A program made the position numbers and the translations under genes. A stretch of 64,000 nucleotides of DNA, taken from the NCBI GenBank assembly GCA_038215705.1, contig JBBQQQ010000004.1, forward strand, positions 147,382-211,381, written 5' to 3'. Below are positions 5,177-60,710 of the stretch, piece after piece. The notes below the pieces were generated by a model. It ran no database searches and had not been told where the DNA came from. It was given only the letters and a program-made list of their open reading frames with translations. The DNA comes from Bacteroidia bacterium. Lineage in GTDB: Bacteria; Bacteroidota; Bacteroidia; AKYH767-A; OLB10. How positions within the stretch are numbered: position 1 is the first letter of the stretch; the number at the start of each line of letters is the position of its first letter.

Positions 5177-5215
5177 TGAAAATCTGATTTTATGCAATAA
5201 ATTCAATAACTTAGA

Positions 5216-15683: not shown

Positions 15684-16190
15684 ATGTTGAATTATTGTAT
15701 TCAATCATTATTAGCAAACAGGAATGCGTTTGAGCATTTGTTGTCAGGCTTAAACCAGGAAGAATATTCCTGGAGAGAGCGCGAGGGAAAATGGTCAATC
15801 ATTGAAGTGGTGTGTCATTTGCGTGATGAAGAAATTGAGGATTTCAGAGCCCGGGTAAAATCAGTTCTTGAAACACCTGAAAAACCTTTTGTTCAAATTG
15901 ATCCTGCAAATTGGGTTTCGGAAAGGAAGTATGCGGACCAGGATTATAAACGCATGCTTACTGCCTTTTTATCGGAGCGCGATAAATCTATTGAATGGTT
16001 ATCATCGTTAACCGATCCGAAATGGGACAACGCGTATAACCACCCGAAAGTGGGTCCTGTATCGGCACGTTTTTTACTGACTAACTGGCTGGCACATGAT
16101 TATCTTCACCTGCGACAGGTAATCAGGATAAAATATAATTACCTTCATTTTTATTCAGGCCACAAACTGGATTATGCGGGTGAATGGTAA
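15684..16190 (+). CDS. DinB/YfiT-like (DinB_2 superfamily) four-helix-bundle metalloprotein
   Basis: 168 aa with His-containing helices (VCHLRDEE..., WLAHDYLHLRQV) typical of the DinB_2 fold. Confidence 0.55.
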   Translation: MLNYCIQSLLANRNAFEHLLSGLNQEEYSWREREGKWSIIEVVCHLRDEEIEDFRARVKSVLETPEKPFVQIDPANWVSERKYADQDYKRMLTAFLSERDKSIEWLSSLTDPKWDNAYNHPKVGPVSARFLLTNWLAHDYLHLRQVIRIKYNYLHFYSGHKLDYAGEW

Positions 16191-16231
16191 ATAAACCCGA
16201 TGAAATTAATTATCATCCCGTAAAGGAAATT

Positions 16232-16558
16232 ATGAACTGGATTATCTTAATTATTGCCGGATTTTTTGAAGTCGCCTTTGCCGCCTGTCTTGGTAAAGCT
16301 AAAGAAACTACCGGCAGCGCCTACATGCTATGGATGGGTGGCTTCCTGGTTTGCCTTACCATTAGTATGGTTTTGCTGTATAAAGCAACACAGACATTGC
16401 CAATAGGTACTGCCTATGCAGTATGGACCGGAATTGGGGCTGTAGGAACGGTATTGATAGGAATTTTCTTTTTTAAAGAACCTGCCGACTTTTGGAGAGT
16501 CTTTTTTATAGTTACCCTCATAGCTTCTATTATAGGATTGAAGCTGGTTTCCTCATAA
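16232..16558 (+). CDS. sugE: SMR-family small multidrug/quaternary-ammonium efflux protein (SugE/EmrE-like)
   Basis: About 108 aa from the internal ATG at 16232, preceded by AAAGGAAAT. Four TM helices, with the conserved membrane Glu in helix 1 (FFEVAFA). Confidence 0.8.
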   Translation: MNWIILIIAGFFEVAFAACLGKAKETTGSAYMLWMGGFLVCLTISMVLLYKATQTLPIGTAYAVWTGIGAVGTVLIGIFFFKEPADFWRVFFIVTLIASIIGLKLVSS

Positions 16559-22800: not shown

Positions 22801-24000
22801 TTACCTGTTAATGTATATTTTTTGTGCGCCCATAAATTGTTGATTCTCCGAATAATTTACAATATACACACCGTTAGCAAGTGCTCCCGGATTTACACGT
22901 CCGGTATTTTTCCAGGATCCTGTTTTTTGACCTTTTAAATTATATAATTCAACCAGATTGTCCATAATGTTTCCTTTCAGGATAATTGATTCTCCATCAA
23001 AGAAAACAGATATCTGGTCTCCGGAAATATTTCCGGTTCCAAGTGATTCAGAAAGTTCCCACAGATCATTCATTCCATTCCCGTTATTAATGCCCGTTGC
23101 AATAAATCCGGAGTTTTGAGTTGTCAAACCAACCGACAGGGTCCGTTCCATTCCGGATGGTAATGCAGGGCCCGGTGTCCAAAGTGCAGTTGCCGGATCG
23201 TACACAAAGAAATTTCCGCTAGTAAAACCGTTGTTCGAATTTCCGCTTCCTACAATTGCCTTTTGGTCCAAAACGATGGAAGTCATTCCGCTTAATTCAC
23301 CCCCGGGATAGGGTGCGATTGATGTCCATGCATCAATTACGGGATCATACCTGTAAAATTCATCATTGAAAATATACACTCCTGCAGATGTTTTAATACC
23401 TCCACCTCCGGTATAGCCCAGGTTGTCAATTGCAAAAGAGGTAGTATAATAAAGCGTACCTCCGGGATAAGATGCTTTTTGCTGCCAGGAATCATTAATG
23501 ATATTATATTCCCAAACTTCATTGGAAAAAGGACCAATAGCGGTGTTATAATTACCTCCCACCAGGAAGGCTTTATGATTTATTAAAAAAACGGAGGCGC
23601 CATATCGTGCAGTTGAAGGTGTTGATGATTTGGTAATCCACATATTTGTTGCCGGATCATATTCTAAAATATCATTATAGAAGATAGCCGGGTTAAAATT
23701 TGCTCCCCAAGCCACATACCCCTTGCCGTTATACGAAAATCCCGTAGCACCATGTCGTGGATTAGGAGTGTTGGCGATTTGAGTCCATGAAAGCGATTGG
23801 GTGTCGAATTTCCAGAAATCCGTTTGGCCGGAAAGATTGAAATTGCCTGCACCTACATACAAAGCGTTGTTTATCGTAAACCCAACAGCGCGGTCCCGGT
23901 TAAGTGTGGGCATGGAAGGTTGCTGTACCCAATTCAGTGTGCTAAAGGCCGGTGTAAAGACAACCAGAAACAGGCAAATTGTGACAATTAGCGTTTTCAT
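22801..24000 (-). CDS. secreted Kelch/galactose-oxidase-like beta-propeller protein with T9SS C-terminal sorting domain
   Basis: Signal peptide present. Repeated Y/W-rich blades (WxxxxxxPxxRxxxxxxxxxxxxYVxGG) are visible. The C-terminus ...GVYIVNYSENQQFMGAQKIYINR is a T9SS type-A CTD. Confidence 0.7.
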   Translation of the reverse strand: MKTLIVTICLFLVVFTPAFSTLNWVQQPSMPTLNRDRAVGFTINNALYVGAGNFNLSGQTDFWKFDTQSLSWTQIANTPNPRHGATGFSYNGKGYVAWGANFNPAIFYNDILEYDPATNMWITKSSTPSTARYGASVFLINHKAFLVGGNYNTAIGPFSNEVWEYNIINDSWQQKASYPGGTLYYTTSFAIDNLGYTGGGGIKTSAGVYIFNDEFYRYDPVIDAWTSIAPYPGGELSGMTSIVLDQKAIVGSGNSNNGFTSGNFFVYDPATALWTPGPALPSGMERTLSVGLTTQNSGFIATGINNGNGMNDLWELSESLGTGNISGDQISVFFDGESIILKGNIMDNLVELYNLKGQKTGSWKNTGRVNPGALANGVYIVNYSENQQFMGAQKIYINR

Positions 24001-24178
24001 AAAGGAGAAATTTAAAATAAAATTACGATTTATTTTTCAAACTGCCTAGACGATCTTTTCCTCAGATGAATTTTCCGCTGTCTTTTGGTGGACATACTTT
24101 TCAGGGCCTTAATCAGATTTTGTTTGGAATTGTTTTTCCATTATCTTTAATTTTTATTCCATAATAAAACTGACCTGC

Positions 24179-26855
24179 ATGAACCGATCACGCTTACTCC
24201 TTTTATTATTCCTGTTAAATTGCTGTACAGGCTTTGCACAGAAAATACTATGGCAGCAAACAGTTGGGGGCAATAAGGAAGATAAAACAATATCGGTGAG
24301 GCAAACAGCCGACGGAGGCTTTGTGTCCGGGGGATGGTCTTCATCCGATATTTCCGGTGACAAAACAGATAGTTGCAGGGGAAACATGGATTATTGGATT
24401 GTTAAGTTTGATGCATATGGAGTCGTTCAATGGGATAAAACATACGGAGGGAATTTCATTGATATCCTTAACACCATTGATCAGACATCCGATGGGGGGT
24501 ACATTTGTGGTGGGATTTCGGGATCTGGTGTTTCCGGTGACAAAACGGAAGGTATTATTGGTTTAAATGACATTTGGATAATCAAATTGGATGCCACAGG
24601 GGCGATTCAATGGCAAAATACCATTGGTGGATTGATGGCAGAATACATATTTTCCATTACTCAAACAGCTGATGGCGGGTATATATGTGGGGCATCCTCC
24701 TCCTCCAATATTTATGGCGACAAGACAGAAAACACGAATGGGATTGCAGGATTTTTGGGTTGTGAAACTTGATGCAGCAGGCAATTTGGAATGGCAAAAT
24801 ACTATTGGTGGAAGCGCAGATGATTTTCTCTATTCGGTTTTGCCAACTCCTGATGGGGGATATATTTGCGGAGGGCGATCTATGTCTGGAATCTCAGGGG
24901 ATAAAACTGAGGTTAGTAACGGTGTTTCAGATTTTTGGGTAGTAAAACTTAATGCTACCGGCGACATACTATGGCAAAATTCTTTTGGAGGAGACGGTTC
25001 TGATGACCTTTATGAGCTGATTTTAACACATGATGGCGGATATTTGACAGGCGGACGGTCATTTTCTACCAAATCAGGTGATAAAACCGAGGAATTGTTT
25101 GGCCTATTTGATTACTGGGTTGTAAAATTAGATTCCACCGGGACCATTCAATGGCAGAATTCTATTGGAGGGAGTGATATGAATGAATTGATGACTCTTA
25201 CCAGTACTTTTGATAACGGGTTTCTTTGCGGAGGCATGTCTCAGTCGTTTATAACAGGCGATAAAAATGAAATATGTCAAGGTCATTATGATTATTGGAT
25301 ATTGAAATTAAATTCCAACGGACAAGTCCTCTGGCAAAATACAATTGGGGGTTCTAATATGGATTACCTTGGTTGGATTGAACCAACAGGGGAAAATGAT
25401 TTCCTATGCGGTGGGTTTTCCAGTTCGAACATTTCAGGAGACAAAACAGAAAATTGCAGCGGATCAACTGATATCTGGATTATTAAAATTTCAGGAAAAA
25501 GGAATATAATATCCGGAACCGCATTTGCTGACTTGAATTCAAGTGGGATAAAGGATCCGGGGGAACCAATTGTTCCTGGCTTGAGAATTGCCGATATTTA
25601 TTCAGGAAATTTTGATTTTACAGACGCTGATGGGTTTTATGCAGTTGCACTCGAAGATACCGGCAATTATGAGGTAGTTGCTCCAACCCTCAATTATTTC
25701 ACAGCCGTGCCTTCCGGTTTTCCGGGATCGTTTTCAGAGTTTCTTGAAACGGATTCGTTGAATGATTTTGCTTTTAAACCTGCCGGAACATTTAATGATT
25801 TATGTGTAAGCAGTACACCTGTCACTGCGTTTCGTTCGGGTATGAATGCAACGTACCGGATAAATTATTCCAATTCAGGTACAACAACACTTAACCCTAC
25901 CGTTATATTCTACCCTGACAGTAATTTATCATTTGCATCCTCTATTCCGGCAGCATCTTCCAGCACACAAGATTCACTGGTATGGAATTTTGGTCCGTTA
26001 ACTCCTTTTGAATCGGGACAGATTTTGGTAACGATGCAAGTTGATTCGGGATTGCCTATTGGTACGCTTATCAATTCGGGTGCAGTTGTAGAGCCACTTG
26101 CGGGAGATGCAAACCTGCTTTGCAACCAGAGTTTCTGGGAAGTGGTTACAACCGGTTCGTATGATCCTAACGATATAATGGTTAACAGGGATACGCTTTA
26201 TGATTTTGAGATAACATCACCTGCGTTTCTTGAGTACGTGGTACGGTTTCAGAATACCGGAAATGATACAGCGTTCTTTGTTAGTGTCAACAATAAAATT
26301 GCTCCGGGTTTGAATTTAAGTTCGTTTGAATTCATTGGTGCATCACACCCATGCACAATTGAGTATCAGAGTTACGATTCCACTTTGAAATTCATCTTCA
26401 ATAATATTTTATTACCTGATAGTAATGTAAATGAACCAGGCAGCAATGGATTTGTAAGGTATCGCATACAACCCCACACTACTTTGGTTCCGGGAGATAT
26501 TATTTCTAACAGCGCAGATATAATATTTGATTTCAACGCTCCCGTTGCTACTAATTCAGCTTTAACCGAAATAGTATTGTACACTTCACTTCAGGAATCT
26601 TCTCCTCCCGGCTTCGCCGTTTACCCCAACCCCGTTACCAATGTAGTGAACGTTGTTTTTAATTTACATGAAAAACAAAATGTTGCCGTCGTACTTTTTA
26701 ATATGTACGGGCAAAAAGTTCAGGAATTGTTTACGGGAGCACTGGAGTCCGGAATTTGGCATAAAGTATTTACATTAGAAAATCTGCCCGGAGGTGTTTA
26801 TGTAATTTCTGTTAACGGATCTTCATTGTGGGGTAAAAGATTAATAAAACTTTAA
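24179..26855 (+). pseudogene. frameshifted gene for a large T9SS-secreted repeat protein (ORF fragments 24179..24772 and 24672..26855 belong together)
   Basis: The 60-aa repeat continues seamlessly from the frame of the 5' ORF into the frame of the 3' ORF. One extra G in ATTGCAGGATTTTTGGG (about 24743..24757) breaks the frame. A signal peptide lies on the first fragment. The second fragment ends in a T9SS CTD (...GVYVISVNGSSLWGKRLIKL). The frameshift could instead be a sequencing error. Confidence 0.6.
24240..25500 (+). repeat. about seven tandem copies of a 180-nt (60-aa) coding repeat
   Basis: Repeat unit consensus DGGYICGG-S-S-ISGDKTE---G--D-W-VKLD--G---WQNTIGG-----L. Seven units are readable in the translation, diverged at the DNA level. 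Confidence 0.7.
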
Positions 26856-26873
26856 AGCTACCGTATTCAAAAT

Positions 26874-27170
26874 TTATTTTATACTTTGAAACAACTCTTC
26901 CTGCTTTATTTCAAAAAGCAGCTGTAATACCTGGTATTTATAAATTTCACCGGTCGGTTTTTGTTTTATAAAACCTTCTTTTACATACTGGGTAAGTTTC
27001 CTTGCCGGGATATCGAGAAGTTTAATTGCATCAGCAGCAGAAATAGTTGTTAATCGCTTTTGTTCCGATGAAATTTCGGCATATAAAGCCTGCCATTCCA
27101 GCAGCAGCCGGAGTGTTTCTTTGGATGGAAAACCGGAGAAAAATTTAAGTTCTCCCTGAGTAATAGCCAT
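26874..27170 (-). CDS. hypothetical small protein, possibly helix-turn-helix DNA-binding
   Basis: 98-aa ORF. The segment TISAADAIKLLDIPARKLTQYVKEGFI looks HTH-like. No other support. Confidence 0.4.
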   Translation of the reverse strand: MAITQGELKFFSGFPSKETLRLLLEWQALYAEISSEQKRLTTISAADAIKLLDIPARKLTQYVKEGFIKQKPTGEIYKYQVLQLLFEIKQEELFQSIK

Positions 27171-27253
27171 AACAATTTATCAAGTTGCAATTATAAGGTT
27201 AATAAAAGTGATTTCAAAATATCAGTCAGTACATATGAAATACCTGATAAGAT

Positions 27254-27285
27254 CAAAAAAAAACGGCAGTCATTGCTGACTGCCG
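27254..27285. terminator. rho-independent terminator for the minus-strand T9SS cargo gene
   Basis: CGGCAGTCA-TTGC-TGACTGCCG perfect 9-bp stem, immediately preceded on the + strand by A9 (a U-run on the minus strand). It lies about 35 nt past the stop of the 27318.. gene. Confidence 0.5.
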
Positions 27286-27317
27286 CGATTCGAAAAGTAA
27301 TAGACCTAACCACAAGT

Positions 27318-29498
27318 CTAAAAAATCGTAAATTTTTTATTAACCGTATATTCACCGATACCTGCTTTCAACTGGTACGAACCTTTTGAAAGGCCTTTCA
27401 GATCGATTGCTGTATGCGAAGCAGGATTTATTAACTGCAGAATCTCTTTACCTGCCAAATCATATACCCTGATAAAATTGACGGGATGGTTGCCTGTAAA
27501 GGAGAAATTTATATGGTCACGGGCAGGAGCAGGATATAAAAGAACCAACTCTCCGGGATGAATTTCACTTATGCCTACAAAGTTAGGGTCAATTACAACC
27601 ACATCACCAATTCCATTAACGGTAACAGGTGTTTCGGAATGTGTTGTTCCTATGATATCAAAAGGAGTTACGTTCAGCATAACTTTCCCTGAAACATTAT
27701 CAGTTGTTACAATAGTGACTCGTGCAACAGGGCCTGTGCCTGTTATATTCGTATGATTGATCCGGGTAATTGCAACATCTACAAACCCATTCATACCTGT
27801 TGAACGGTCTATTTTAATCATATCAACACCGTTTGAACCAAAGAGTGACCCGGGAGTAGTCACAGAAATTGAGTTAAGATCAATCATGGAAGGATCAAAA
27901 TACAAACGGAAAGCAAGACCGTAAATACTGTCGATCGGAGTAGTGAAACTAAGATCAAAATTTACCAGTGTGGTTAATCCTACGGTATCTGCTACGGCGT
28001 TAACCGATAAATCCACAATGGAACTTACCGCGGGATCCTGAAGACGCAATGGGTGATTCAGGCCATAGTTTAAAAAGATTGCAGTGGTATCAGCAAAATT
28101 AATGGTTCCATTACCATCCGTATCGGCGTGTTTGTGATTGATGCCGCTAAGGAAACTGTTTGTCCAGTCAGCTGATGGTTGTGCAGTCCAGTTAAGACTG
28201 GCAGATGGCCTGATCGGACCATTGTCGTTATAAGCTATGCCAATAGGAAGCAGATCATACAGGTTCGCTACACCGTCGGAATTCGCATCACCCGGCCAAA
28301 CATCGTTGGTATTACATCCATTTACAAAAACCTGGTATATGAAACTCTGCGTCCCATAATAATCACAGAAATCGTCATTCACGGTAATATTAAAAATATA
28401 GGGCGAACTGCTCACATCACCAGTAGCCGGAATCCATGTAAAAGTTCCGGAAGGGAAAGCGCCACCAGAGCTGCTTAATGCTGCGGTTGTGCCGATGTTG
28501 TTCATTGAAAGCGAAAGATTCTGAGCGGAATCAGGATCACTGCTGATCACATCAAAAGTGATTGTGTCACCAGGGCAGCCATTGGTCACAAAATTTGCAG
28601 TCCCGTTCATCCCCGTAAGGGAAGGGGCATTGTTACTCGTGTTAACAACGGCAATCTGAAAATCACGGTAAACATATCCGATAAAAAACCCATTCCTGTA
28701 TTCGGAAACTTTCATGCATACCACCGCCACCTGTAAAGCGTTTGGGGATACCGTTAGTAATCCATTGGCAGGATTAAGTGTTGTGGCTGTGGAAGCGAGG
28801 AAAGGCTGCAGATAGGAATAACCTGGTGTGTATGGAATCAGCAACGGGAAAACACCAAAGTCAAGGGCCGGGCCAAGTTCATAAACTATTGAATCACCAT
28901 CAGCATCGTATGTGGTCCAGCCAAGTGTAGTGGTAACATTTGCTGGAATAATATTAACCGGGCTCTGGTCAAATTGTACCGAATTGTTAAATGGAACATC
29001 CAGATTGTTCAGTTGGGCTGAAATATAACTACCATACGTTGAACTATTCGATAAATTGGTAACAGCGGCATTGCGGCAGCATTCTGTATAATAAAAAGTC
29101 CAGTCGTTACAATTAGCGGGCAGTGTTACAGTTGCTTCAAACGAAATTTTTTCAACTGCATAAAGGGATCCGCCGTTACACGATGAGTTGGCTGCAGACG
29201 TTGCACAAACCGGGGATATATTAACCGGTGATCCTATAATACTCATAGCAGTAGTATAAGGACCCATGCCGCAGGAAAACGAGCGGTATTTAATTGTTAA
29301 AGCAGGTACCGGGATGCCCGAACAATCACGGTAATAATCAAGTTTCACCAGGTAAGTGTTGCCTGATATCCACTGGTAAGTTATTTCAGCGCCTGCAATA
29401 TGCGAAGCCCGGCTGCTGGTTGCCAGGCACAGCCATATAAAAAGCACGAAGGCTGCTGCCTTAAATGACTGAGAGGAAGTGGTTAAAATTTTTCTCAT
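27318..29498 (-). CDS. large secreted cell-surface protein with T9SS C-terminal sorting domain and dockerin-like Ca-binding loops
   Basis: The likely start is the internal Met (MRKILTTSS..., signal peptide) at 29498. The protein is Cys-rich in the N-terminal region. It carries DANSDGVANLYDL and DTDGNGTINFADT loops. The C-terminus ...YPAPARDHINFSF...KKFTIF is a T9SS CTD. Confidence 0.7.
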   Translation of the reverse strand: MRKILTTSSQSFKAAAFVLFIWLCLATSSRASHIAGAEITYQWISGNTYLVKLDYYRDCSGIPVPALTIKYRSFSCGMGPYTTAMSIIGSPVNISPVCATSAANSSCNGGSLYAVEKISFEATVTLPANCNDWTFYYTECCRNAAVTNLSNSSTYGSYISAQLNNLDVPFNNSVQFDQSPVNIIPANVTTTLGWTTYDADGDSIVYELGPALDFGVFPLLIPYTPGYSYLQPFLASTATTLNPANGLLTVSPNALQVAVVCMKVSEYRNGFFIGYVYRDFQIAVVNTSNNAPSLTGMNGTANFVTNGCPGDTITFDVISSDPDSAQNLSLSMNNIGTTAALSSSGGAFPSGTFTWIPATGDVSSSPYIFNITVNDDFCDYYGTQSFIYQVFVNGCNTNDVWPGDANSDGVANLYDLLPIGIAYNDNGPIRPSASLNWTAQPSADWTNSFLSGINHKHADTDGNGTINFADTTAIFLNYGLNHPLRLQDPAVSSIVDLSVNAVADTVGLTTLVNFDLSFTTPIDSIYGLAFRLYFDPSMIDLNSISVTTPGSLFGSNGVDMIKIDRSTGMNGFVDVAITRINHTNITGTGPVARVTIVTTDNVSGKVMLNVTPFDIIGTTHSETPVTVNGIGDVVVIDPNFVGISEIHPGELVLLYPAPARDHINFSFTGNHPVNFIRVYDLAGKEILQLINPASHTAIDLKGLSKGSYQLKAGIGEYTVNKKFTIF

Positions 29499-29711
29499 GG
29501 TAAATGAATTAATAGATATTGGCCAGAGGCTTTTTATCACGTTACAAACATATTTCGGAATTCACTAATTAAAAAATACAAAATTTAGCTTTTGTCGGAT
29601 GTAATTTTACGGATTTATAGCCACTTAATTGAATAATATGATAAATATTATATTGAATATTAATTAAATACATTTATCATCAAAATTTTATAAAATCGTA
29701 TATTTGTCGGA

Positions 29712-31139
29712 ATGAATACGATTTCATCATCTCGGTTAACTTCGGTGCTTGCAGCGCTTTCACGGTCAGAATGGCGTCATTTTAAGCGATTTATACAATC
29801 CGGCCTGGCAGGACCTCCAGGGAAATCGGTGGAGTTATATGATTATTTGTCGGATTTCCATCCCGTTTTCACCGGCCGTGAAATGGACAAGACCGTCATA
29901 TTTAACGCAATTTTTACCAATGAAATATACCAGGATAAAAAATTGCGTTATGCGCTCACCGACCTGTACCGGTGTGCCTGCAATTTTTTGCGATACAAGG
30001 CTTTAGAAGATCATAATGAGGAAGGTAATTATCTTTTGGGAACCATTCTGGCGCAGCGGCAGGCGGATAAGGCCTACCTGGCGCATTATCTGACAGACGG
30101 AAATCAATTAAATTTAGATGCAGATAAAGGGGCGGAATACTATTTTCATGCGTATCGCAAAGAGTTTGTTCATCTCAATCATTTCCTGCCCCGACAAAAG
30201 AGAAGCGATCAAAATCCGATAGGTTCAATTTCCCGAAACCTGGATGTTTTTTTTGTTGCAAAAAAATTGCAGCTGCTTTGTGAAATTGTCAATGTGAAAA
30301 ATGTAATGTCGGTAAGTCATGATTTCCTTTTGCAGGAAAAAATAATTGAGATGGTTGAAAATGGTGTGTTCAATGATGTGCCGGTAATCATTATTTATTA
30401 TCGAATTTTAATGACGCTTTTAAATCCTGATGATGAAAAGCATTTTGAAATTTTGAGTGAGTTGCTGAGAATCCATGAAAATGTTTTCAAAAAACCGGAA
30501 TTGCGTGACATGTATCAGTACCTAATAAATTATTGTATTAAAAAAATTAACCAGGGTGTTAGTAGTTATATTTCAACACTGGCCCGCATTTACAAAGTAA
30601 TTCTTGCCAACAAGGTAATTTACAACGGACAATATTTATCACAATGGGATTTTAAAAATATGGTGGTAATAGGCATTCGTGCTGGTGAGCAGGAATGGGT
30701 GAAACAATTTATTGAGAATTACCATCAGGAATTACTGCCGGCAGAACGATCTAATGCCCGTATTTATAACCTGGCTTATTATTATTTCAGCACGGGTGAA
30801 TACCGAAGCGCGCTTTCTCTTTTGCAGAAGGTGGAATTTACTGATTTATATTACCAGCTCGATATGCGGGCTATACTTTTGAAATGTTATTTTGAAATGG
30901 ATGACCAGGAAACATTTTTTTATCATATTGCCGCTTTCAGGATCTTTTTAAGCAGGAATAAACTGGTGTCGGATTACCAGCGAACCATTTATCGTAACAT
31001 GATCCGTTTTTCAACAAAACTCATACGTGCCACTGGTGATAGAACCAAAGCAAACTTTATTCAAAAACAAATTGAAGAGGTGAAACAAATTGCTGATATT
31101 AACTGGCTGCGAAATAAAGCTGCCTTGATAGTTGCTTAA
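29712..31139 (+). CDS. hypothetical all-helical protein (475 aa), function unknown
   Basis: Long ORF with consistent coding composition, a predicted alpha-helical/TPR-like C-terminal half and no catalytic motifs. It is preceded by an AT-rich region with a TATATTTG (-7-like) element. Confidence 0.6.
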   Translation: MNTISSSRLTSVLAALSRSEWRHFKRFIQSGLAGPPGKSVELYDYLSDFHPVFTGREMDKTVIFNAIFTNEIYQDKKLRYALTDLYRCACNFLRYKALEDHNEEGNYLLGTILAQRQADKAYLAHYLTDGNQLNLDADKGAEYYFHAYRKEFVHLNHFLPRQKRSDQNPIGSISRNLDVFFVAKKLQLLCEIVNVKNVMSVSHDFLLQEKIIEMVENGVFNDVPVIIIYYRILMTLLNPDDEKHFEILSELLRIHENVFKKPELRDMYQYLINYCIKKINQGVSSYISTLARIYKVILANKVIYNGQYLSQWDFKNMVVIGIRAGEQEWVKQFIENYHQELLPAERSNARIYNLAYYYFSTGEYRSALSLLQKVEFTDLYYQLDMRAILLKCYFEMDDQETFFYHIAAFRIFLSRNKLVSDYQRTIYRNMIRFSTKLIRATGDRTKANFIQKQIEEVKQIADINWLRNKAALIVA

Positions 31140-31144
31140 ATAAA

Positions 31145-32545
31145 TTAATAAACAGAACTGTCTTGTTTTTTCCTTTCGGAGAAAAGTAACCAGGCCGCAA
31201 CTGAAACAACCATTAATAATTCCAATCTTACCGGAATGGTATAACGTGCCTGAATTGTGAAAGGGATATGAATAATACCAATATACAGGATAATGATAAT
31301 GATCCACAAGAGGGGAGTCATCAGTTTGCGATTCCTGTAAATGGCAAGAGGAATTAATATAATTGCCGCCAGGAAAGCGACCAGTGTTATTAGTAACGGA
31401 TAAAGCAGATAAGCTTTTTTAACCGGGCCAGAAGCATTAAAATCCTTCATTCGTAATCCGGTAACCCATAACCGTACCGCTGAATAGAATTTTACTTTCA
31501 AATAAAAAGGGAAATCTGCACGAATGTTTTCCATTGCAAATTGCCTTAATAAGGCTTCTCTTTTAATTGTGTAAGGGCCATTAAAAGTTTTAAGAAAGGA
31601 AGGATTTTTCTCAGCGAAAACCATCATGATGCTATCGTGATTTGTAAGCAGGGGAGCTGTGATGGAATCAATGATATCCCACTCTTGATTATACCTTTCA
31701 ATATTTTCATTCCGGTCTTTTTCATCAATCAATGCAATCATTTCCCTGTTACAGTAATTACCCCAATACCGGGTATCATAATAATCCGGCATCTTAAAAG
31801 ACCAGTATCCCAGGTGAAGCAATCCTCCGCCACCTTCGAGTGAAGTTACTTTGAAGACACCGTGATTGGATTTATTCCATAATCCATAAGGTATCATGGT
31901 AAGAAAAAAAACTGTTAACAAAAGGAGGCTGTGTGCAGTGGAAAAATTATTCCGGTGTACAACGAATTGATAAATTATGTAAAGTATCGGAAGAAATAAA
32001 ATTACAGGCCGTACCTGGAATGTGATTCCGAAAAGCAGTCCCAGTAAAATGTATTTTTTTAGGGAAGATTGCATCTTAAGATCCGTCCATATAATTAATA
32101 GCAGGAGGAATGTAACTAAAATTTCAGGAAATATTATTGCGGTGTAAGAAGCAACATATACTGATGGAAGTAGTATGAGCAGGAAAATATTTTTAATTGA
32201 AATGTTACCATAAAGTATTTCGAGCACTGATAACGCCAGCATAATTGATACAATATAAAGTACCAGTTGCGCTATTTGGATGGCCAGAATTGAATCGCTG
32301 AATAGCTTAAAAAGTGCGAGAAATAAAGGATAACCCGGATTGCGGAGCGTGTCGGGCATTGGATGCTCCAGGAAATTCCAGTAGGAATAACTTCCCTTTA
32401 ATATTCCTTCAGCCAGTCCAAGGTAAGTGGTTGCATCCTTTCCGGGATCATTAAAAAACAAAAGGAACATAACTACTGAAACCACGACGTTCAGCAATAA
32501 AAGCAACCGGAATGTATTATTGCTATGCAGGAAATTTTTCAGCAT
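31145..32545 (-). CDS. GT-C-fold integral-membrane glycosyltransferase (family 39 / ArnT-PMT-like), predicted polyprenyl-phosphate-sugar-dependent
   Basis: 466 aa with more than ten TM helices. The N-terminal periplasmic-loop region (DATTYLGLAEGIL...RNPGYPLFLALF) resembles the ArnT/PMT family. It is adjacent to a GT2 polyprenyl-P sugar synthase. Confidence 0.55.
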   Translation of the reverse strand: MLKNFLHSNNTFRLLLLLNVVVSVVMFLLFFNDPGKDATTYLGLAEGILKGSYSYWNFLEHPMPDTLRNPGYPLFLALFKLFSDSILAIQIAQLVLYIVSIMLALSVLEILYGNISIKNIFLLILLPSVYVASYTAIIFPEILVTFLLLLIIWTDLKMQSSLKKYILLGLLFGITFQVRPVILFLPILYIIYQFVVHRNNFSTAHSLLLLTVFFLTMIPYGLWNKSNHGVFKVTSLEGGGGLLHLGYWSFKMPDYYDTRYWGNYCNREMIALIDEKDRNENIERYNQEWDIIDSITAPLLTNHDSIMMVFAEKNPSFLKTFNGPYTIKREALLRQFAMENIRADFPFYLKVKFYSAVRLWVTGLRMKDFNASGPVKKAYLLYPLLITLVAFLAAIILIPLAIYRNRKLMTPLLWIIIIILYIGIIHIPFTIQARYTIPVRLELLMVVSVAAWLLFSERKKQDSSVY

Positions 32546-32559
32546 GCCCTGAGCTAAAG

Positions 32560-33309
32560 TTATTTTTTACTTCTTCCTCTTTCTGAGGGAAGATCATAAT
32601 TTTCGGAAAAAATTTCAGAATACATTCTTCGTATATCCTTAATGGTATTCATAATATTTTTCATACTGGTTGATGATCCTTTCCCGATTTCACGCGGGAA
32701 GGTCTGAATTCCCATTTCACCAATCCTGTAACCTTTAAGCATGCTTTTGATTGTTATTTCTGCACCGATAAACGGACTATCGGAGGTAATGATCAACTCA
32801 TCAATTAAAGATTTTCTCACCAGTCGCATTCCGGTACTGATATCCCGGAAACGGGTACGGAATAACCAGCGCAGCACTTTATTGTAAATGTATGATATAA
32901 AAATGCGTTTGTTAGAATATATTTTTTTATAGCGGAATGTAATTATCAAATCATAAAAATCTTTGAGTTTGATCATTCTTTTCAGATCGTGCAGATCATA
33001 TTCGTCATCGCCATCTGTAAGGCAAATCCATTCATATTGTGCATGCTGAAAACCCGTTTTAAGCGCTGCGCCATAACCAAGATTTTTAGGATGATGAATT
33101 ACTTTGATAAACGGGTGCTGTGTTGCAAGTTCATCGGCAATAGCACCCGAACGGTCAGGGCTGCAGTCATCGATAATAATTATTTCAAATTTATTGGCGA
33201 TTTCACTGCAAACGGCGATTGCCTTATTGGTGACAGACGCCACAGTAAGTTCATCTTTATAAACCGGGAAGAATACAGTGATATCCGGTTGATTTTCATT
33301 AGTTGTCAT
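32560..33309 (-). CDS. GT2 polyprenyl-phosphate glycosyltransferase (Dpm1/ArnC/GtrB-like)
   Basis: 249 aa with a GT-A fold, the motifs IIIDDCSPDRSG and TDGDDE (DxD), and NLGYGAALKTG. Confidence 0.75.
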   Translation of the reverse strand: MTTNENQPDITVFFPVYKDELTVASVTNKAIAVCSEIANKFEIIIIDDCSPDRSGAIADELATQHPFIKVIHHPKNLGYGAALKTGFQHAQYEWICLTDGDDEYDLHDLKRMIKLKDFYDLIITFRYKKIYSNKRIFISYIYNKVLRWLFRTRFRDISTGMRLVRKSLIDELIITSDSPFIGAEITIKSMLKGYRIGEMGIQTFPREIGKGSSTSMKNIMNTIKDIRRMYSEIFSENYDLPSERGRSKK

Positions 33310-33312
33310 GGT

Positions 33313-34059
33313 TCAGAACTTTAATTTTTTGTAGATGCTGAATGGAACCAGGTTAAGTACGAAAGTAATCCAGAACCAGAATCGTGGAAGGTAGTACAAT
33401 CCCGGACCTTTTTCTGAATAGCTGATGATTTTTGAGGCAATGGATTTAACAGACGCAGCGGGAAAGGGAAGTTTTTGTCCATAACTCAAATTGGTATCCA
33501 TGTATCCGAAACGGCAGAGCTGAATGGTTGAATTGGTATGTGCCTGTGAATGCATCAGGCCGAAGCAATACTGTTCCAGTGCTTTTTTTGCCGTGCTGTA
33601 TGCAATATTTTTACCTCTTGCCCGGGCAGCAGCAACTGATGAAGCCACTATTATGCGAAGCGACTTTTCTGCTTTTTTTACGAGCAATTCATTGATTAAA
33701 TAAGCAGGACCTGTGAAATTATTTTGCATCAGCACCTGAAGAGTTTCAATGGCATTCAGGTGTTCATCTTTTTCATTAATTGAGCCTGCCAATACGTAGC
33801 AGGTATCCGGAAAATCTGTGATGGCAATCAATTGATTAATTATTTGTTTGCCGTAAGTTGCATCTTTAATGTTTGCCAGATCAAGAGGAAAAGGATGCGC
33901 TTCAACCTGGTAACTGATGCGGATATGACTACATATCGCATCGAGATCACGCTGACTGCGTGCCGAAAGAATTACATTCACACCTTTTGCCGCCAGCATT
34001 TCTGCAGTCTGTCTTCCCAATCCGGTACTTGCTCCTATGATCCAGGCAGTTTGTTTCAT
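33313..34059 (-). CDS. SDR-family oxidoreductase, DprE2-like (lipid-linked 2'-keto-sugar reductase candidate)
   Basis: N-terminal GASTGLGRQ Rossmann motif. The central ASSVAAARARGKNIAYSTAKKALEQY and the C-terminal ...LVPFSIYKKL resemble, as I recall it, mycobacterial DprE2 ([22 protein letters not shown]..., ...HIPRSIFRKL). Confidence 0.65.
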   Translation of the reverse strand: MKQTAWIIGASTGLGRQTAEMLAAKGVNVILSARSQRDLDAICSHIRISYQVEAHPFPLDLANIKDATYGKQIINQLIAITDFPDTCYVLAGSINEKDEHLNAIETLQVLMQNNFTGPAYLINELLVKKAEKSLRIIVASSVAAARARGKNIAYSTAKKALEQYCFGLMHSQAHTNSTIQLCRFGYMDTNLSYGQKLPFPAASVKSIASKIISYSEKGPGLYYLPRFWFWITFVLNLVPFSIYKKLKF

Positions 34060-35369
34060 GAATTGAGATTAATCCGGGTTTTTAATTCCGATGAAATGAC
34101 ATTTCCGGGATCAAACGATTGGATTTTTTTGCGGAATTCCTCAAAGCCGGGAAAGACAGCGCTTATGAAAGAATGGTCAGCGCGGCTATCCTTGCTCAGA
34201 TTTACAATAGCATTAAATTTCACGCATACGGCATCCAGGTCCCGGAAAAATGTGATTGCTTTATGGCTCTCCTGAACATCAATTGTAAGACAAACTCCTT
34301 CTCCCGAAAAACTCAGCTGATGGGTTGTTCCGTTAAAAAGTTTAAGGGAACCAAGTGCCACTGCTATTTTATTTCGTTGAATAAGTTGTTGAATTTCATT
34401 GAATGCTTTTTCATAACTTTTGTAGGGAATCAGCATCTGGTATTCCCGGAATCCCTTTTTCCCAAAGAGGTAGTAATATATTTCTTTATTATACAAGGGA
34501 AAGCTTCCCTGCATAAGATCCTGCTTTGTTGTCTTACTTTTAAGTTTTTCAAGCTGATAATACACACTGCACATAGCTGTAACCGTTAGATCAGAATGCA
34601 ATGCAGGAAGTTTATAACTCAGGGGCATTTTATCGGAATAGTTACGTACTGCTGTTTTACCTTGCACGTATTTTTCCAGGTAAACAATGCCCCTTCCAAA
34701 CCCGGTATTTTTCCTGTTCAGGTCATTCCAGGAATAAACATATTCATAATTGTTTTCCGCATCACGCATGTAACTGACCGCTTCAAAAATATTCTTGACA
34801 AAAATTCTTTCTGATTGAATATTACCGCCAGGAAGTGTTTTAAAGCCAAGCTTTGCGCTTATTATAATTCCGGTAAGTCCGAAACCACCAATGGTAAGGT
34901 TAAACAATTCTTTATTCTGTTGTGGAGAGCACACCATTTCACCGTGCACAGGATGATATACATTCAATTCCTGTACCCAGTCGCCGAACGTTCCGACTTT
35001 AAATTGTGATTTTCCATGAATATTAAAAGCGATACAGCCACCTGCTGTAATCATTGGATAACCGGGTAAAACCGGTAAAATAAAATTCCTGGAAATTAAA
35101 AAATTATTAAGTTCACCTACGGAAATTCCTGCTTCAACAGTTATTGTTTTTGCCTGTGAATCGAATGCAAGAATTTTATTCATTCTTCGCATGTCTACAA
35201 CTATTCCCGCTGCACTAGCCCCGGCATTGCAATAACTTAAGCCTGCGCCTCGGGCAATAAGGGGAGTTTCACGGATATTGAAAATGTCATCATATTTTTC
35301 AGGGCGCACACTTTTACAAAGCGTATGTTCTGTTTTATCGAAACTGGTAATTTCCTGTTGCTTTATCAT
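34056..35369 (-). CDS. FAD-binding oxidase, DprE1-like (decaprenylphosphoryl-beta-D-ribose 2'-oxidase family)
   Basis: Segments ARGAGLSYCN, VVDMRRMNKIL, PVLPGYPMITAGGCIAFNIHGKS, GLTGII and KDSR align, as I recall it, with DprE1 ([50 protein letters not shown], KDSR). A 4-nt overlap with the SDR gene suggests translational coupling. Confidence 0.7.
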   Translation of the reverse strand: MIKQQEITSFDKTEHTLCKSVRPEKYDDIFNIRETPLIARGAGLSYCNAGASAAGIVVDMRRMNKILAFDSQAKTITVEAGISVGELNNFLISRNFILPVLPGYPMITAGGCIAFNIHGKSQFKVGTFGDWVQELNVYHPVHGEMVCSPQQNKELFNLTIGGFGLTGIIISAKLGFKTLPGGNIQSERIFVKNIFEAVSYMRDAENNYEYVYSWNDLNRKNTGFGRGIVYLEKYVQGKTAVRNYSDKMPLSYKLPALHSDLTVTAMCSVYYQLEKLKSKTTKQDLMQGSFPLYNKEIYYYLFGKKGFREYQMLIPYKSYEKAFNEIQQLIQRNKIAVALGSLKLFNGTTHQLSFSGEGVCLTIDVQESHKAITFFRDLDAVCVKFNAIVNLSKDSRADHSFISAVFPGFEEFRKKIQSFDPGNVISSELKTRINLNS

Positions 35370-36097
35370 TTTCGTTTGTAAACCACCTCGTCCAGGTTAC
35401 CAAAACCATGCGGCACAGTTTTATATTCGACAAATTTATTTTTATTAAGCAAATCCTTTATCTGAGTATACGGCACGCGGTTTTTATACATATCATCGTT
35501 GTGATTTTCGATTTGTATGTAGTCAACCGGTACGGCATCATCACCGGTAAATAAACCCTGCAGACAATAAAATTCATGCCCTTCGGTATCAATTTTTAAA
35601 ATGTCGATCTTCCGTAAAGGTAAATTTTCATTGATGAATTCACGTAGTGTTACAACGTTTACCGGATACTGGCTGCTCACTATGTTTTCAGGTTTAACAC
35701 CCAATATTTTAGCTTTTCTTTTAAGGTATTCCGAATCAGGGTTCAGGTCTTCAAACGATGAAGTATAATCGAAAACATTTTCGAAAAACAATTTTTCACC
35801 GGAATGGTTGCTGATGCCGAGGTTGAAAATTTTAATACGGCTGTTAGAGCTATATTTGTTTTGCAGTAACCTGAAAAGAACAGGATTCGGCTCAAGTGCA
35901 AATATTTCACAGGAAGGATTTAGTTTAAGAAAAAAGTCGATGCTTTGGCCTTTATTTGCGCCCACATCAACCACTACGTTACAGGGTGTTATAAATTCCT
36001 GCTTATAAAACCGGAATATGCTCCGCTCAAAGAAAAACTTCTCGTTAAGATCTATTAACCGTTTAATGATATTGACTCTGATCGACTGAAAACTCAT
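35366..36097 (-). CDS. FkbM-family SAM-dependent methyltransferase
   Basis: 243 aa with the SAM-binding motif VVDVGANKGQS. The overall pattern is typical of FkbM-domain sugar O-methyltransferases. Confidence 0.7.
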   Translation of the reverse strand: MSFQSIRVNIIKRLIDLNEKFFFERSIFRFYKQEFITPCNVVVDVGANKGQSIDFFLKLNPSCEIFALEPNPVLFRLLQNKYSSNSRIKIFNLGISNHSGEKLFFENVFDYTSSFEDLNPDSEYLKRKAKILGVKPENIVSSQYPVNVVTLREFINENLPLRKIDILKIDTEGHEFYCLQGLFTGDDAVPVDYIQIENHNDDMYKNRVPYTQIKDLLNKNKFVEYKTVPHGFGNLDEVVYKRK

Positions 36098-36229
36098 AAT
36101 GAGGATTTTGTGATGATGGGAAGCAGCTTTTCACATCCTGCTTCAGAACCGAAGCATGTTCCAAATTTAAACAAAAAGATGAAATGCGGAACCGGTTACA
36201 GGAAAGGCAATAGTATATTGAGCATATTG

Positions 36230-36952
36230 TCAGCCTTCTCCTCTGATATCGAGTTGTTCACAGGCAATGCGGGCTGCAATTTGTTCGGCTTTCTTTTTTA
36301 CAAAATCAGTTCCGGTCGCAATTTCAACACCATCAATCATAAGCCGTACTTTTATGAGCCTGCTCAATGTTCCTTCCTCGATAGTTTCAAATACAAGATT
36401 CTTTTTTTCGCGCTGCGCCCAGTTTATGATACGGCTTTTGAAATTCGTATCCGATTTTTCAATTTCGTTTAAATCGATATGAAGGCTGAAAATGCGGTTG
36501 ACCACAAACTTCTCAGTTGTTTTATATCCTTTATCAAGAAAAATTGCTCCGATTAGTGCTTCAAATGCATCGCCGTACATGGAACGGTACATGCCTGGAC
36601 CGGAATTGGTTTTTACATATTTGTCGAGACCAATTTTCAGTGCCAGGTTTTTCAAATGCTCCCTGCTGACAATCCGGGAGCGCATTTCGGTCAGAAATCC
36701 TTCATCCCGGAAAGGGAATCGACGAAACAGCATATCGGCAACGATAGCTCCAAGTATGGCATCGCCAAGATATTCAAGCCGTTCGTTTGTAAGTTGCATT
36801 CCATTCACAGCCGAAGGCGAAGCGGAGCGATGTGAAAAAGCAAGCTTGTACACTGACAGATTTCGCGGGTAAAACCCTAAAATGTTTTTGAGGGAAAGAA
36901 TCATTACCTTCTCACCTGAAAACAACAGCCGGTAAGGAAGGAGAAAGTCCAA
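36230..36952 (-). CDS. rnc: ribonuclease III
   Basis: RNase III signature ERLEYLGDAILG and a C-terminal dsRBD. 240 aa. Confidence 0.85.
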   Translation of the reverse strand: MDFLLPYRLLFSGEKVMILSLKNILGFYPRNLSVYKLAFSHRSASPSAVNGMQLTNERLEYLGDAILGAIVADMLFRRFPFRDEGFLTEMRSRIVSREHLKNLALKIGLDKYVKTNSGPGMYRSMYGDAFEALIGAIFLDKGYKTTEKFVVNRIFSLHIDLNEIEKSDTNFKSRIINWAQREKKNLVFETIEEGTLSRLIKVRLMIDGVEIATGTDFVKKKAEQIAARIACEQLDIRGEG

Positions 36953-36958
36953 TAGGGT

Positions 36959-38212
36959 TTATTTAAATTTCCTGAAGATAACAGATGCATTATGTCCACC
37001 GAAACCAAAAGTGTTGCTGAGGGCGGCATTTACCGTGCGGTGCTGAGCCTTGTTAAAGGTAAAGTTAAAACGCTTGTCAAATTCCGGATCATCCGTAAAG
37101 TGGTTGATTGTAGGAGGAACGATATCGTGTTTAACAGCAAGAATAGAAGCAACCGATTCAATTGCACCGGCAGCACCCAGTAAGTGACCGGTCATTGATT
37201 TTGTAGAACTAATATTGAGCTTATAAGCATGTTCGCCGAACACGCTTGCAATGGCTTTCACTTCGCTGATATCACCCAGCGGAGTTGATGTTCCGTGTAC
37301 ATTGATATAATCAATTTCAACAGGATCCATTTCCGCATCTGAAAGTGCATTCTTCATAACATTCAACGCGCCGAGTCCTTCCGGATGCGGAGCAGTTATG
37401 TGATGCGCATCGGCCGACATGCCACCGCCCATCATTTCGGCATAAATGGTAGCACCCCTGGCAATTGCGTGTTCGTATTCTTCAAGCACCACTGCCGCAG
37501 CACCTTCGCCCATCACAAATCCATCGCGACCTAAATCAAAAGGTCGGGAAGCAGTTGCAGGATCATCATTTCTTTCAGAAAGAGCGTGCATGGCATTAAA
37601 TCCTCCTACTGCGGGTTCATTGATTGCGGCTTCCGAACCACCGGCAACAATGGCATCTGCTTTTCCTAACCGGATCAGCATAAACGCATCATTTAAGGCA
37701 TGGGTGGAAGAAGCGCAGGCCGAAACCGTAGCGTAATTAGGTCCTCGTAAACCATAACGAATCGATATATGACCCGAGGCAATATCAATGATCATTTTTG
37801 GGATGAAAAATGGGTTGAACCGGGGCGTGCCGTCACCTAACGCAAAATTTGTAGCCTCATCCCAGAATGTTCGTAAGCCACCGATACCCGCAGCCCAGAT
37901 CACTCCAACCCTGTCGGGGTTAAATGAGGGGTGTGCAACCACGCCGGATTCTTCTATCGCCTGAATAGCAGCAGCAAGTCCGAACTGACTAAACAGATCG
38001 AGCTTGCGGGCTTCTTTGCGGTCGAGGATGGTTCCAGGATCGAAGTTTTTCACTTCGCAAGCAAACCGGGTCTTGAATTTAGCAGCGTCAAACCGGGTGA
38101 TGGGTGCAGCTCCTGATTTTCCACTGACCAATCCATCCCAGAATTCTGAAACAGTATTACCAAGTGGGGTAAGGGCTCCTAACCCTGTAACTACAACTCT
38201 TTTGAGCTTCAT
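36959..38212 (-). CDS. fabF: beta-ketoacyl-ACP synthase II
   Basis: 417 aa with the Cys-His-His catalytic triad context (ACASS..., HGTSTPLGD, GHLLGAAG). Confidence 0.9.
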   Translation of the reverse strand: MKLKRVVVTGLGALTPLGNTVSEFWDGLVSGKSGAAPITRFDAAKFKTRFACEVKNFDPGTILDRKEARKLDLFSQFGLAAAIQAIEESGVVAHPSFNPDRVGVIWAAGIGGLRTFWDEATNFALGDGTPRFNPFFIPKMIIDIASGHISIRYGLRGPNYATVSACASSTHALNDAFMLIRLGKADAIVAGGSEAAINEPAVGGFNAMHALSERNDDPATASRPFDLGRDGFVMGEGAAAVVLEEYEHAIARGATIYAEMMGGGMSADAHHITAPHPEGLGALNVMKNALSDAEMDPVEIDYINVHGTSTPLGDISEVKAIASVFGEHAYKLNISSTKSMTGHLLGAAGAIESVASILAVKHDIVPPTINHFTDDPEFDKRFNFTFNKAQHRTVNAALSNTFGFGGHNASVIFRKFK

Positions 38213-60657: not shown

Positions 60658-60710
60658 TACACCACATTGTCAAAATAGTAATTGTACCAACTTCCTAAAT
60701 AGTTTGTAAA

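Follow-up and report, generated by a model that had tools for sequence, protein, structure and literature searches.

The 64,000-nucleotide stretch analysed here, from a Bacteroidia bacterium (assembly GCA_038215705.1, contig JBBQQQ010000004.1, positions 147,382 to 211,381; hereafter the window), carries a five-gene cassette that raises the question of whether the sugar epimerisation performed by DprE1 and DprE2 also occurs on lipid-linked sugars made by a family 2 glycosyltransferase (GT2). In mycobacteria, DprE1 and DprE2 (Rv3790 and Rv3791) constitute the 2′-epimerase that converts decaprenyl-P-ribose to decaprenyl-P-arabinose, in a pathway with the DPPR synthase Rv3806c and the Emb and Aft arabinosyltransferases of the GT-C class. 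The pair is a leading drug target in tuberculosis and the textbook example of how a sugar is epimerised while attached to a lipid. The window cassette encodes an FkbM-family methyltransferase, a DprE1-like FAD oxidase, a DprE2-like short-chain dehydrogenase/reductase (SDR), a GT2 and a polytopic GT-C glycosyltransferase. On balance, we lean towards reading it as an extracytoplasmic glycosylation pathway in the style of the Gtr and Arn systems, with epimerisation of the DprE1/DprE2 type at the lipid-linked stage.

The oxidase is a true homologue of DprE1 in sequence, fold and catalytic residues. Besides matching FAD_binding_4 in Pfam (81 bits), it aligned over residues 4–435 with positions 2–449 of the 449-position NCBIfam DprE1 model NF053785. 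The score, 223.6 bits, falls short of the cut-off of that model (500 bits), whereas lactone-oxidase, GlcD and all other models gave 52 bits or less. Its best sequence match in the PDB was M. smegmatis DprE1 (4aut; E 6.4e-39, 30% identity, full length), with the next family at E 1e-10. When an AlphaFold 2 model (pLDDT 79.7) was submitted to Foldseek, the top 49 matches were all DprE1 (TM-score 0.80–0.84) and the next family followed at E 7e-24; the protein thus shows the two-domain VAO/PCMH-type flavoenzyme fold specific to DprE1. An earlier note on this DNA, made from the letters alone, had named short sequence blocks shared with DprE1. These (GLTGII, KDSR and LPVLPG...GGCIAFNIHGK) are present, and the enzyme groups with DprE1 and not with lactone, alditol or GlcD oxidases.

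Individual residues were mapped through the PDB alignment onto M. tuberculosis DprE1 numbering, with the amino acids at C387, K418 and H132 as a cross-check. The equivalents of Y60, H132, K134, W230, Q336, K367, K418, D419 and R421 are kept in the window oxidase, and the catalytic and FAD-proximal set among them (Y60, H132, K134, Q336, K367 and K418) is kept in both of the clades described below, one coupled to GT2 genes, as in the window, and the other to genes for UbiA-family prenyltransferases. Relative to the UbiA-coupled class, the clade of the window carries the substitutions D130N, H136Q, W323Y, Q334E, V365S and Y415N, several of which presumably line the substrate and inhibitor pocket of DprE1. 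Substitution in the pocket (Q334E, V365S and Y415N) with the catalytic set kept fits a different sugar substrate.

The SDR, which matched adh_short in Pfam (78 bits), presumably works together with the oxidase as an NAD(P)H-dependent keto-reductase. It has a GASTGLG motif for NAD(P) at residue 9 and YSTAK, of the YxxxK type, at residue 154. Its top NCBIfam match was PRK07102 (NF005489; 111 bits, cut-off 267), which calibration on UbiA-coupled SDRs identified as a model of Gram-negative DprE2 orthologues; the DprE2 model proper, NF053786, gave 58 bits (cut-off 250). Both alignments run end to end, and other high-ranking SDR models cover the N-terminal ~190 residues only. On this evidence the protein goes with DprE2-type and not with generic SDR models, and it lies below the curated cut-offs of both DprE2-type models. 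The C-terminal block named in the earlier note is present as VPFSIYKKLKF. The most hydrophobic stretch of the protein, FWFWITFVLNLVPFSIY, spans residues 227–243, and the hydrophobic C-terminus suggests that the substrate is membrane-bound.

To place the cassette among its relatives, homologous loci (numbered L002 to L042 where they need to be told apart) were collected. The first three context look-ups concerned oxidase homologues at 40–53% identity. An Arcticibacter metagenome-assembled genome (MAG) has the same five-gene arrangement within wholly different surroundings, a Daviesbacteria genome of the candidate phyla radiation (CPR) has oxidase, SDR, GT2 and methyltransferase genes between flanking PMT-type GT-Cs, and another Bacteroidota MAG has the oxidase-SDR-GT2 triad followed by a protein with transmembrane (TM) and TPR segments. 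Three further look-ups with the oxidase and one started from the GT2 all returned the same triad. A scan of GTDB with one genome per species gave 22 loci, all of them in MAGs. Altogether the triad was found in some 20 independent loci of several phyla, the hosts being Bacteroidota, Daviesbacteria, Bdellovibrionota, Planctomycetota (a Thermoguttaceae MAG) and a betaproteobacterial MAG. According to open reading frame (ORF) maps and tblastn, an orthologous GT2 of ~245 aa without TM segments directly follows the SDR, except in L024, where it precedes the oxidase. In L016 and L025 a different GT2 adjoins the pair, and in L026 the oxidase stands alone.

The closest relative, a Bacteroidota MAG from GTDB (L009), has cassette proteins 83–93% identical to those of the window and shares with it acpP-fabF-rnc on the upstream side and the 475-aa ORF on the downstream side. 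The full order FkbM-oxidase-SDR-GT2-GT-C recurs at 50–57% identity in three other Bacteroidota loci (L002, L010 and L012), so that the five genes are co-conserved, as the earlier note had required of its proposal, around a triad core of wider distribution. Because this order recurs at such identity and in an unrelated neighbourhood, the cassette is not a chance juxtaposition. Across 18 loci the distances of the triad proteins correlate (r 0.79–0.82; oxidase and GT2, r 0.82, Mantel 0/2000), which indicates that the triad is inherited as a unit. No copies were found in phage genomes or viral contigs, so nothing points to a seroconversion module. As a separate observation, the oxidase-SDR pair of a Bacteriovoracaceae MAG, whose contig ends after the SDR, is preceded by an Arn/Ppg-like set (L008:31-3276) that comprises a DUF3473-bearing polysaccharide deacetylase, a GT2 of 236 aa and, directly behind it, a small membrane protein with DUF2304, a formyltransferase, a methyltransferase and an MBOAT protein.

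The methyltransferase scored above the cut-offs of both Methyltransf_21 (PF05050; 66 bits against 22.7) and the FkbM model TIGR01444 (79.6 bits against 37.7), and a sequence and profile search of the PDB gave no match to it. FkbM orthologues occupy the same position in L002, L009, L010 and L012, hence in five loci with the window. In other loci, those of other phyla among them, a class-I methyltransferase lies directly beside the triad (L005, L011 with two, L013, L018, L021 and L040) or one gene further away (L042). Methyltransferases are thus recurrent yet non-orthologous neighbours of the triad, with FkbM proteins in some loci and class-I enzymes in at least seven. That different methyltransferases have been recruited again and again speaks for methylation as a part of the pathway. 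The lipid-linked sugar is probably O-methylated; to our knowledge, FkbM-family enzymes are O-methyltransferases wherever they have been characterised.

The same neighbours could be taken to mean that the oxidase and SDR do not epimerise a lipid-linked sugar, but that the keto-sugar is kept or is modified further by C-methylation or amination, or that the substrate is a nucleotide sugar ahead of the GT2 step or the polyprenol carrier itself. We consider this unlikely, though it deserves to be weighed: a methyltransferase is recurrently linked to the pair, a DegT aminotransferase lies near the triad in L005 and L023, the pocket residues differ from those of DprE1, and the sequence data fix neither the regiochemistry nor the fate of the ketone. 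However, aminotransferases are not conserved with the triad, and the characterised activity of the FkbM family is, as far as is known, O-methylation. An oxidase and an SDR encoded by overlapping genes follow the logic of DprE1 and DprE2, the two proteins co-evolve, and the hydrophobic C-terminus of the SDR suggests a substrate in the membrane. Epimerisation of a lipid-linked sugar is accordingly the reading retained here for the pair.

The donor on which the pair would act is presumed to be a polyprenyl-P-sugar made by the GT2, as judged by the families to which this enzyme is related. It matched Glycos_transf_2 in Pfam (100 bits), and its NCBIfam alignments with ArnC (positions 7–221 of 316), AglJ (1–217 of 293) and PpgS (4–218 of 226) take in nearly the whole catalytic domain, whereas other GT2 families align over the N-terminal half only. 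No equivalog cut-off was reached, the best curated score being that of ArnC (60.8 bits against a cut-off of 529). The best PDB matches were three ArnC entries (E 1.7e-12, query residues 10–225), followed by DPMS. The DxD motif lies in TDGDDE at residues 99–104. A hydropathy scan revealed no C-terminal TM helices of the GtrB/ArnC type, and in this the enzyme presumably resembles PpgS and human DPM1. A homologue search returned 2157 relatives, all with generic annotation. The GT2 is the best-conserved member of the triad, with a mean pairwise identity of 64% over 18 loci; the oxidase averages 43% and the SDR 36%. Scans of the neighbours in related loci showed no nucleotide-sugar synthesis gene recurring beside the triad, which fits the use of a housekeeping nucleotide sugar.

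That a GT2 takes the place of a UbiA-type phosphoribosyltransferase had been proposed in the earlier note, and the comparison of loci bears this out. The 64-kb window holds no UbiA-type gene, its multi-TM proteins being the GT-C, a Wzy-like protein, an ABC exporter, a TauE protein and an SMR protein only; a 244-aa multi-TM ORF at 4442–5176, considered as a UbiA candidate, is the TauE protein. Among the neighbour proteins scanned within 7–10 kb on either side in some 20 loci of the window's clade, none was of the UbiA family. A tblastn search of PLSDB plasmids with the oxidase, in contrast, returned 65 records at 23–29% identity, and in all six of the annotated plasmid contexts (L033–L038) a UbiA-family prenyltransferase gene stands directly upstream of those for an FAD oxidoreductase and an SDR. 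The hosts of these six are Rhizobium leguminosarum, R. tumorigenes, Paracoccus, Cereibacter, Burkholderia stagnalis and a member of the Flammeovirgaceae (Bacteroidota), and most of the loci also encode a GtrA protein and large hypothetical proteins. The UbiA protein of L034 is annotated as decaprenyl-phosphate phosphoribosyltransferase.

Neighbour-joining trees with bootstrapping separate the two classes. For the oxidase, the UbiA-coupled set, including M. smegmatis DprE1, was split from the rest in 200 of 200 replicates, and the SDR tree independently gave the same split (200/200); mean identity between the classes is 24%. Model scores follow this division. Gram-negative UbiA-coupled oxidases reached 319–434 bits with the DprE1 model, compared with 148–224 bits in the clade of the window. 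UbiA-coupled SDRs scored 317–359 bits with PRK07102, above its cut-off, against 102–138 bits, and 171–199 bits with the DprE2 model, against 58 bits for the window SDR. By these sequence comparisons, the oxidase and SDR of the window are sister-clade paralogues of DprE1 and DprE2 and not their orthologues. The description of the pair as DprE1/DprE2-like in the earlier note therefore stands for homology, fold and catalytic residues but not for orthology, given the scores below cut-off and the clade split. It may be added that two of the plasmid loci, those of R. tumorigenes (L035:8036-10683) and B. stagnalis (L038:7955-10714), carry extra genes after the SDR, annotated 'NAD-dependent epimerase/dehydratase' in the former and 'SDR family oxidoreductase' in the latter, together with an 'NAD(P)/FAD-dependent oxidoreductase' and a GtrA gene in both. 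These additions hint that sugars of the canonical class may be tailored further while on the lipid.

The contrast between the classes also makes it quite improbable that the cassette serves the canonical D-arabinofuranose pathway, in which a UbiA enzyme from another part of the genome would provide polyprenyl-P-ribose and the GT2 would serve some other purpose. All characterised members of the superfamily do act on polyprenyl-P-ribofuranose (PMC11127046; bioRxiv 10.1101/2020.04.19.049825), the catalytic residues are common to the window oxidase and DprE1, and the check for UbiA genes covered 64 kb of this genome. Yet the GT2 goes with the pair in several phyla and is better conserved than either of them, and the UbiA gene that adjoins the pair in all six loci of the other clade is missing within 7–10 kb of it in some 20 loci of this one. 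Moreover, the canonical form exists in Bacteroidota, on the plasmid of L034, and is clearly distinct there, with 27–28% identity to the window. Finally, the clade split is accompanied by clade-specific substitutions in the pocket, and both proteins score far below Gram-negative members of the UbiA class on the DprE1, DprE2 and PRK07102 models. A donor made by the GT2 of the cassette is thus the preferred reading.

The ORF map confirmed five co-directional genes on the minus strand at the coordinates that the earlier note had given, and Pfam and NCBIfam matches upheld its five family assignments (Table 1). The two overlaps of 4 nt that it had pointed out are both of the ATGA start/stop type and join the methyltransferase stop to the oxidase start and the oxidase to the SDR. 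The gaps that follow are of 3 nt (SDR/GT2) and 14 nt (GT2/GT-C). Because the oxidase, SDR, GT2 and methyltransferase have no signal peptides or TM segments, all four are predicted to be cytoplasmic.

Table 1. Genes of the cassette in order of transcription (positions within the window)
Product	Position	Strand	Length and remarks
FkbM methyltransferase	35366-36097	-	243 aa; first cassette gene
DprE1-like FAD oxidase	34056-35369	-	437 aa; two-domain; predicted cytoplasmic
DprE2-like classical SDR	33313-34059	-	248 aa; hydrophobic C-terminal tail
GT2, ArnC/DPMS/AglJ/PpgS-like, without TM segments	32560-33309	-	249 aa
GT-C polytopic glycosyltransferase	31145-32545	-	466 aa; last cassette gene

Upstream of the cassette, on the same strand, lie fabF and rnc. 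A promoter and terminator scan of 30900–37100 gave counts at the level of shuffled sequence, which speak neither for nor against cotranscription with fabF-rnc. That the five neighbours belong to separate pathways, for example as generic redox enzymes beside a polysaccharide GT2, is hardly credible, for although none of the proteins attains an equivalog-level annotation and the scan stayed at shuffle level, the genes are translationally coupled through the two ATGA overlaps, their order is kept at 34–55% protein identity across phyla and in unrelated neighbourhoods, and the distance matrices of the triad proteins are correlated.

The last gene of the cassette encodes the presumed user of the lipid-linked donor. 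This GT-C exceeded the Pfam cut-off of PMT_2 by 3 bits (29 bits against 26.1), and no sequence or profile match in the PDB was obtained at E ≤ 10, so that it was placed by fold search alone. A TM scan indicated about ten TM segments; a helical extracytoplasmic insert of ~150 residues lies at 225–375. With an AlphaFold 2 model of high quality (pLDDT 93.6, pTM 0.92), the top PDB matches in Foldseek were all GT-C enzymes, the best being ArnT (5f15; E 3.4e-4), followed by AglB, AftB, PglB, ALG3, PimE and PMT. Across 36 homologues D37 and Y41 in the first extracytoplasmic loop are invariant, as are R68, E141, R358, Q432, R434 and Y435. The family, of ~470 aa, is almost entirely from Bacteroidota among the named matches and is mostly annotated 'hypothetical'. 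With its Bacteroidota-centred distribution and no PDB match, the protein is not the housekeeping ArnT (GT83) or PMT (GT39) orthologue that the earlier note had named as a possible objection.

GT-C orthologues follow the GT2 in L002, L010, L011 and L012, and those of at least ~50% identity track the cassette within Bacteroidota. In L023 a remote homologue follows the GT2 (hhalign probability 95.5%); hhalign found no link to the polytopic neighbours of L020 and L024, and an iterated hidden Markov model built from five orthologues found no further members outside Bacteroidota among the related loci. Proteins of the GT-C or PMT_2 type adjoin the triad in many loci, but outside Bacteroidota the polytopic neighbours are other PMT_2-type proteins or have no assigned family. 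A constant donor module combined with variable transferases is the modular pattern of Gtr-like systems. More distant members of the GT-C family of the window occur directly behind a different GT2 of 248 aa (22% identical, PgfS/ArnC-like) in Hymenobacter sp. BT189 (L031:6127-9452) and a Flavobacteriales MAG (L032:3459-9413). At these two loci, of which the latter also has methyltransferases, the GT-C is accompanied by one or two GalE/RmlB-like extended SDRs and no DprE1/E2-like pair was found, which suggests modular donor-synthesis cassettes that share one GT-C family.

Starting from homology, catalytic residues, gene order and coupling, co-inheritance, clade separation and the absence of an alternative first enzyme, we infer a pathway of five steps, the sugar, regiochemistry, flippase and acceptor of which are likewise conjectural. 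The GT2 would load a sugar from a common nucleotide sugar onto undecaprenyl (polyprenyl) phosphate at the cytoplasmic face of the membrane. The DprE1-like flavoenzyme would then turn one of the ring hydroxyls of this sugar into a ketone by oxidation, at C2 beside the anomeric phosphate if DprE1 is a guide, and the DprE2-like SDR with NAD(P)H would reduce this ketone from the opposite face to yield the epimer. The FkbM protein may O-methylate the sugar, on the lipid or at another stage. Lastly, a flippase would move the donor across the membrane, and the GT-C would transfer the sugar to an acceptor in the envelope.

Several observations weigh against this pathway or the comparisons behind it. 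In small-ORF TM scans the cassette showed no flippase gene of the GtrA, MATE or SMR type. Polytopic neighbours of the triad outside Bacteroidota are not orthologous to the GT-C and often not demonstrably of the GT-C class. Even the closest relative, L009, lacks a GT-C gene: its GT2 (contig JALYQW010000019.1) is followed at 12810–12921 by 110 bp and then by the convergent 475-aa ORF, and tblastn with the GT-C over 21 kb of the locus gave no match, so that the donor module can evidently exist without this transferase. For two clade members, L015 and L019, the sequence covered contains no GT2. As to the comparisons, the GT2-class loci were retrieved with peptide patterns taken from the same class and the UbiA-class loci came from a plasmid database, and the trees are neighbour-joining distance trees of 27–30 sequences with midpoint rooting.

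Beyond this one genome, we tentatively propose that the triad represents an unrecognised and broad sister family of DprE1/DprE2 that may epimerise GT2-made polyprenyl-P sugars in place of PRPP (phosphoribosyl pyrophosphate)-derived ribose and so yield a new class of lipid-linked donors from which periplasmic GT-Cs would add rare and often methylated sugars. The enzyme families are known, as is the general logic; what is new, and apparently undescribed, is the coupling to a GT2 and the substrate class that it implies. No literature on a GT2-coupled module of the DprE1/E2 type, or on redox epimerisation of GT2-made donors, was found in a search with incomplete full-text coverage; the relevant publications that came up were PMC11127046 and the TfpW preprint. 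If the proposal is true, the conserved GT2-coupled clade would extend DprE1/DprE2 chemistry to donors derived from nucleotide sugars, and new lipid-linked and surface sugars would be predicted in Bacteroidota, Bdellovibrionota, Planctomycetota and the CPR. One lead in the Bdellovibrionota is Bdellovibrio bacteriovorus, whose lipid A has alpha-mannose where phosphate would otherwise stand. On-lipid redox epimerisation would then be a general strategy for diversifying glycans instead of a speciality of arabinan and pentofuranose synthesis, and the clade would provide new enzymes for glycoengineering. It also offers a natural comparison set for the DprE1 pocket residues that set substrate specificity.

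The surroundings of the cassette were surveyed as well. Convergent with the GT-C gene is a 475-aa ORF (29712–31139, plus strand) with no Pfam or NCBIfam match. That it belongs to the same system is not supported: L009 and L010 have it at the same position, but L002 and L012 lack it next to their cassettes. On the other side, purN, fabF and rnc separate the cassette from a large Wzy-type polysaccharide locus (39245–59275, minus strand, and 59542–61664, plus strand), which is flanked by gmd and an fcl-like gene. This locus has genes for a Wzz/BY-kinase, an ABC-type exporter and Wzy-like, GH127-like, FemAB-like and GalE-like proteins, as well as for UDP-GlcNAc 2-epimerase, AsnB, a hexapeptide acyltransferase, five GT4s and a GT2, together with two unassigned ORFs. 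The stretch 22801–29540 encodes a Kelch-repeat protein (22801–24000) and two cargo proteins of the type IX secretion system (T9SS) with Por_Secre_tail domains (24672–26855, plus strand, with DUF7619/DUF11; 27318–29540, minus strand), and no evidence was found that links these genes to the cassette. The earlier suggestion that the adjacent polysaccharide or T9SS glycoproteins might be the acceptor was left without support, and in L002 the cassette stands away from such genes. The sole flippase-like small membrane protein of the window is an SMR-family protein of 124 aa with four TM segments (16184–16558, plus strand), 15 kb from the cassette; the SMR family is that of the ArnE/F-type lipid-sugar flippases. 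Unrelated to the cassette is a molybdenum-cofactor cluster (2156–6927, plus strand; MoaA-like, MoeA, MobA-like and ThiF/MoeB-rhodanese), into which the TauE-family exporter gene is interposed.

Set beside the mycobacterial system, the cassette has in common the adjacent genes for an FAD oxidase and an SDR, the oxidase fold with its catalytic residues and, as proposed here, a lipid-linked donor for a GT-C. Unlike mycobacterial DprE1, the window oxidase, at ~30% identity to it, belongs to the sister clade below the NCBIfam cut-offs. The target of benzothiazinones, Cys387, is a threonine (T362) in the window oxidase, and N385 is replaced by a cysteine (C360) that is invariant in its relatives. 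The donor would come from a GT2 and not from a PRPP-dependent UbiA enzyme and a phosphatase, and a methyltransferase is attached.

Gram-negative three-component systems for pentofuranoses include those of Citrobacter youngae O1 and O2, with PPPRS, MATE and GT136 proteins (Kelly et al. 2024, PMC11127046), and D-arabinofuranose (D-Araf) is added to pilin in Pseudomonas aeruginosa PA7/Pa5196 by PsPA7_6245-6249 and TfpW (bioRxiv 10.1101/2020.04.19.049825). In such systems a cytoplasmic polyprenyl-P-sugar is made, optionally epimerised by DprE1/E2-type enzymes for Araf, flipped and used by a GT-C (PMC11127046; bioRxiv 10.1101/2020.04.19.049825). The UbiA-class plasmid loci L033–L038 are of the same type as these and the mycobacterial system. 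The pentofuranose systems start from PRPP through a UbiA-family PPPRS and have GtrA or MATE proteins, whereas the window cassette has a GT2 and no gene for a UbiA enzyme, phosphatase or flippase, and its GT-C is unrelated at the sequence level to those of the pentofuranose and pilin systems.

A parallel in one respect is ORF13 of C. youngae O2, a GalE-like SDR proposed to epimerise ribofuranose on undecaprenyl phosphate (Und-P-Ribf) to xylofuranose (Und-P-Xylf) (PMC11127046). As in that system, an auxiliary epimerase would diversify the lipid-linked donor for a promiscuous GT-C. ORF13, however, is a single extended SDR that acts on a PRPP-derived pentofuranose, whereas the window encodes a two-enzyme flavin/SDR pair for a sugar that is proposed to be GT2-derived. 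The authors of that study state that no further epimerase of side-chain glycosylation systems is known to them, and they treat DprE1/E2 homologues only downstream of PRPP-dependent synthases (PMC11127046).

In its overall plan the cassette can be compared with GtrA/GtrB/Gtr*, with ArnC/ArnD/ArnE-F/ArnT and with FlmF2/NaxD/FlmK of Francisella, in all of which a GT2 of the ArnC/GtrB/DPMS type comes first and a GT-C last. The closest solved fold to the window GT-C is, moreover, ArnT of the Arn system. The GT2 of the window, like PpgS, has none of the C-terminal TM helices found in GtrB and ArnC. The Arn and Nax pathways modify the sugar on undecaprenyl phosphate, by deformylation or deacetylation; unlike in Gtr, Arn and Nax, the on-lipid change proposed for the window cassette would be a redox epimerisation by relatives of DprE1 and DprE2.

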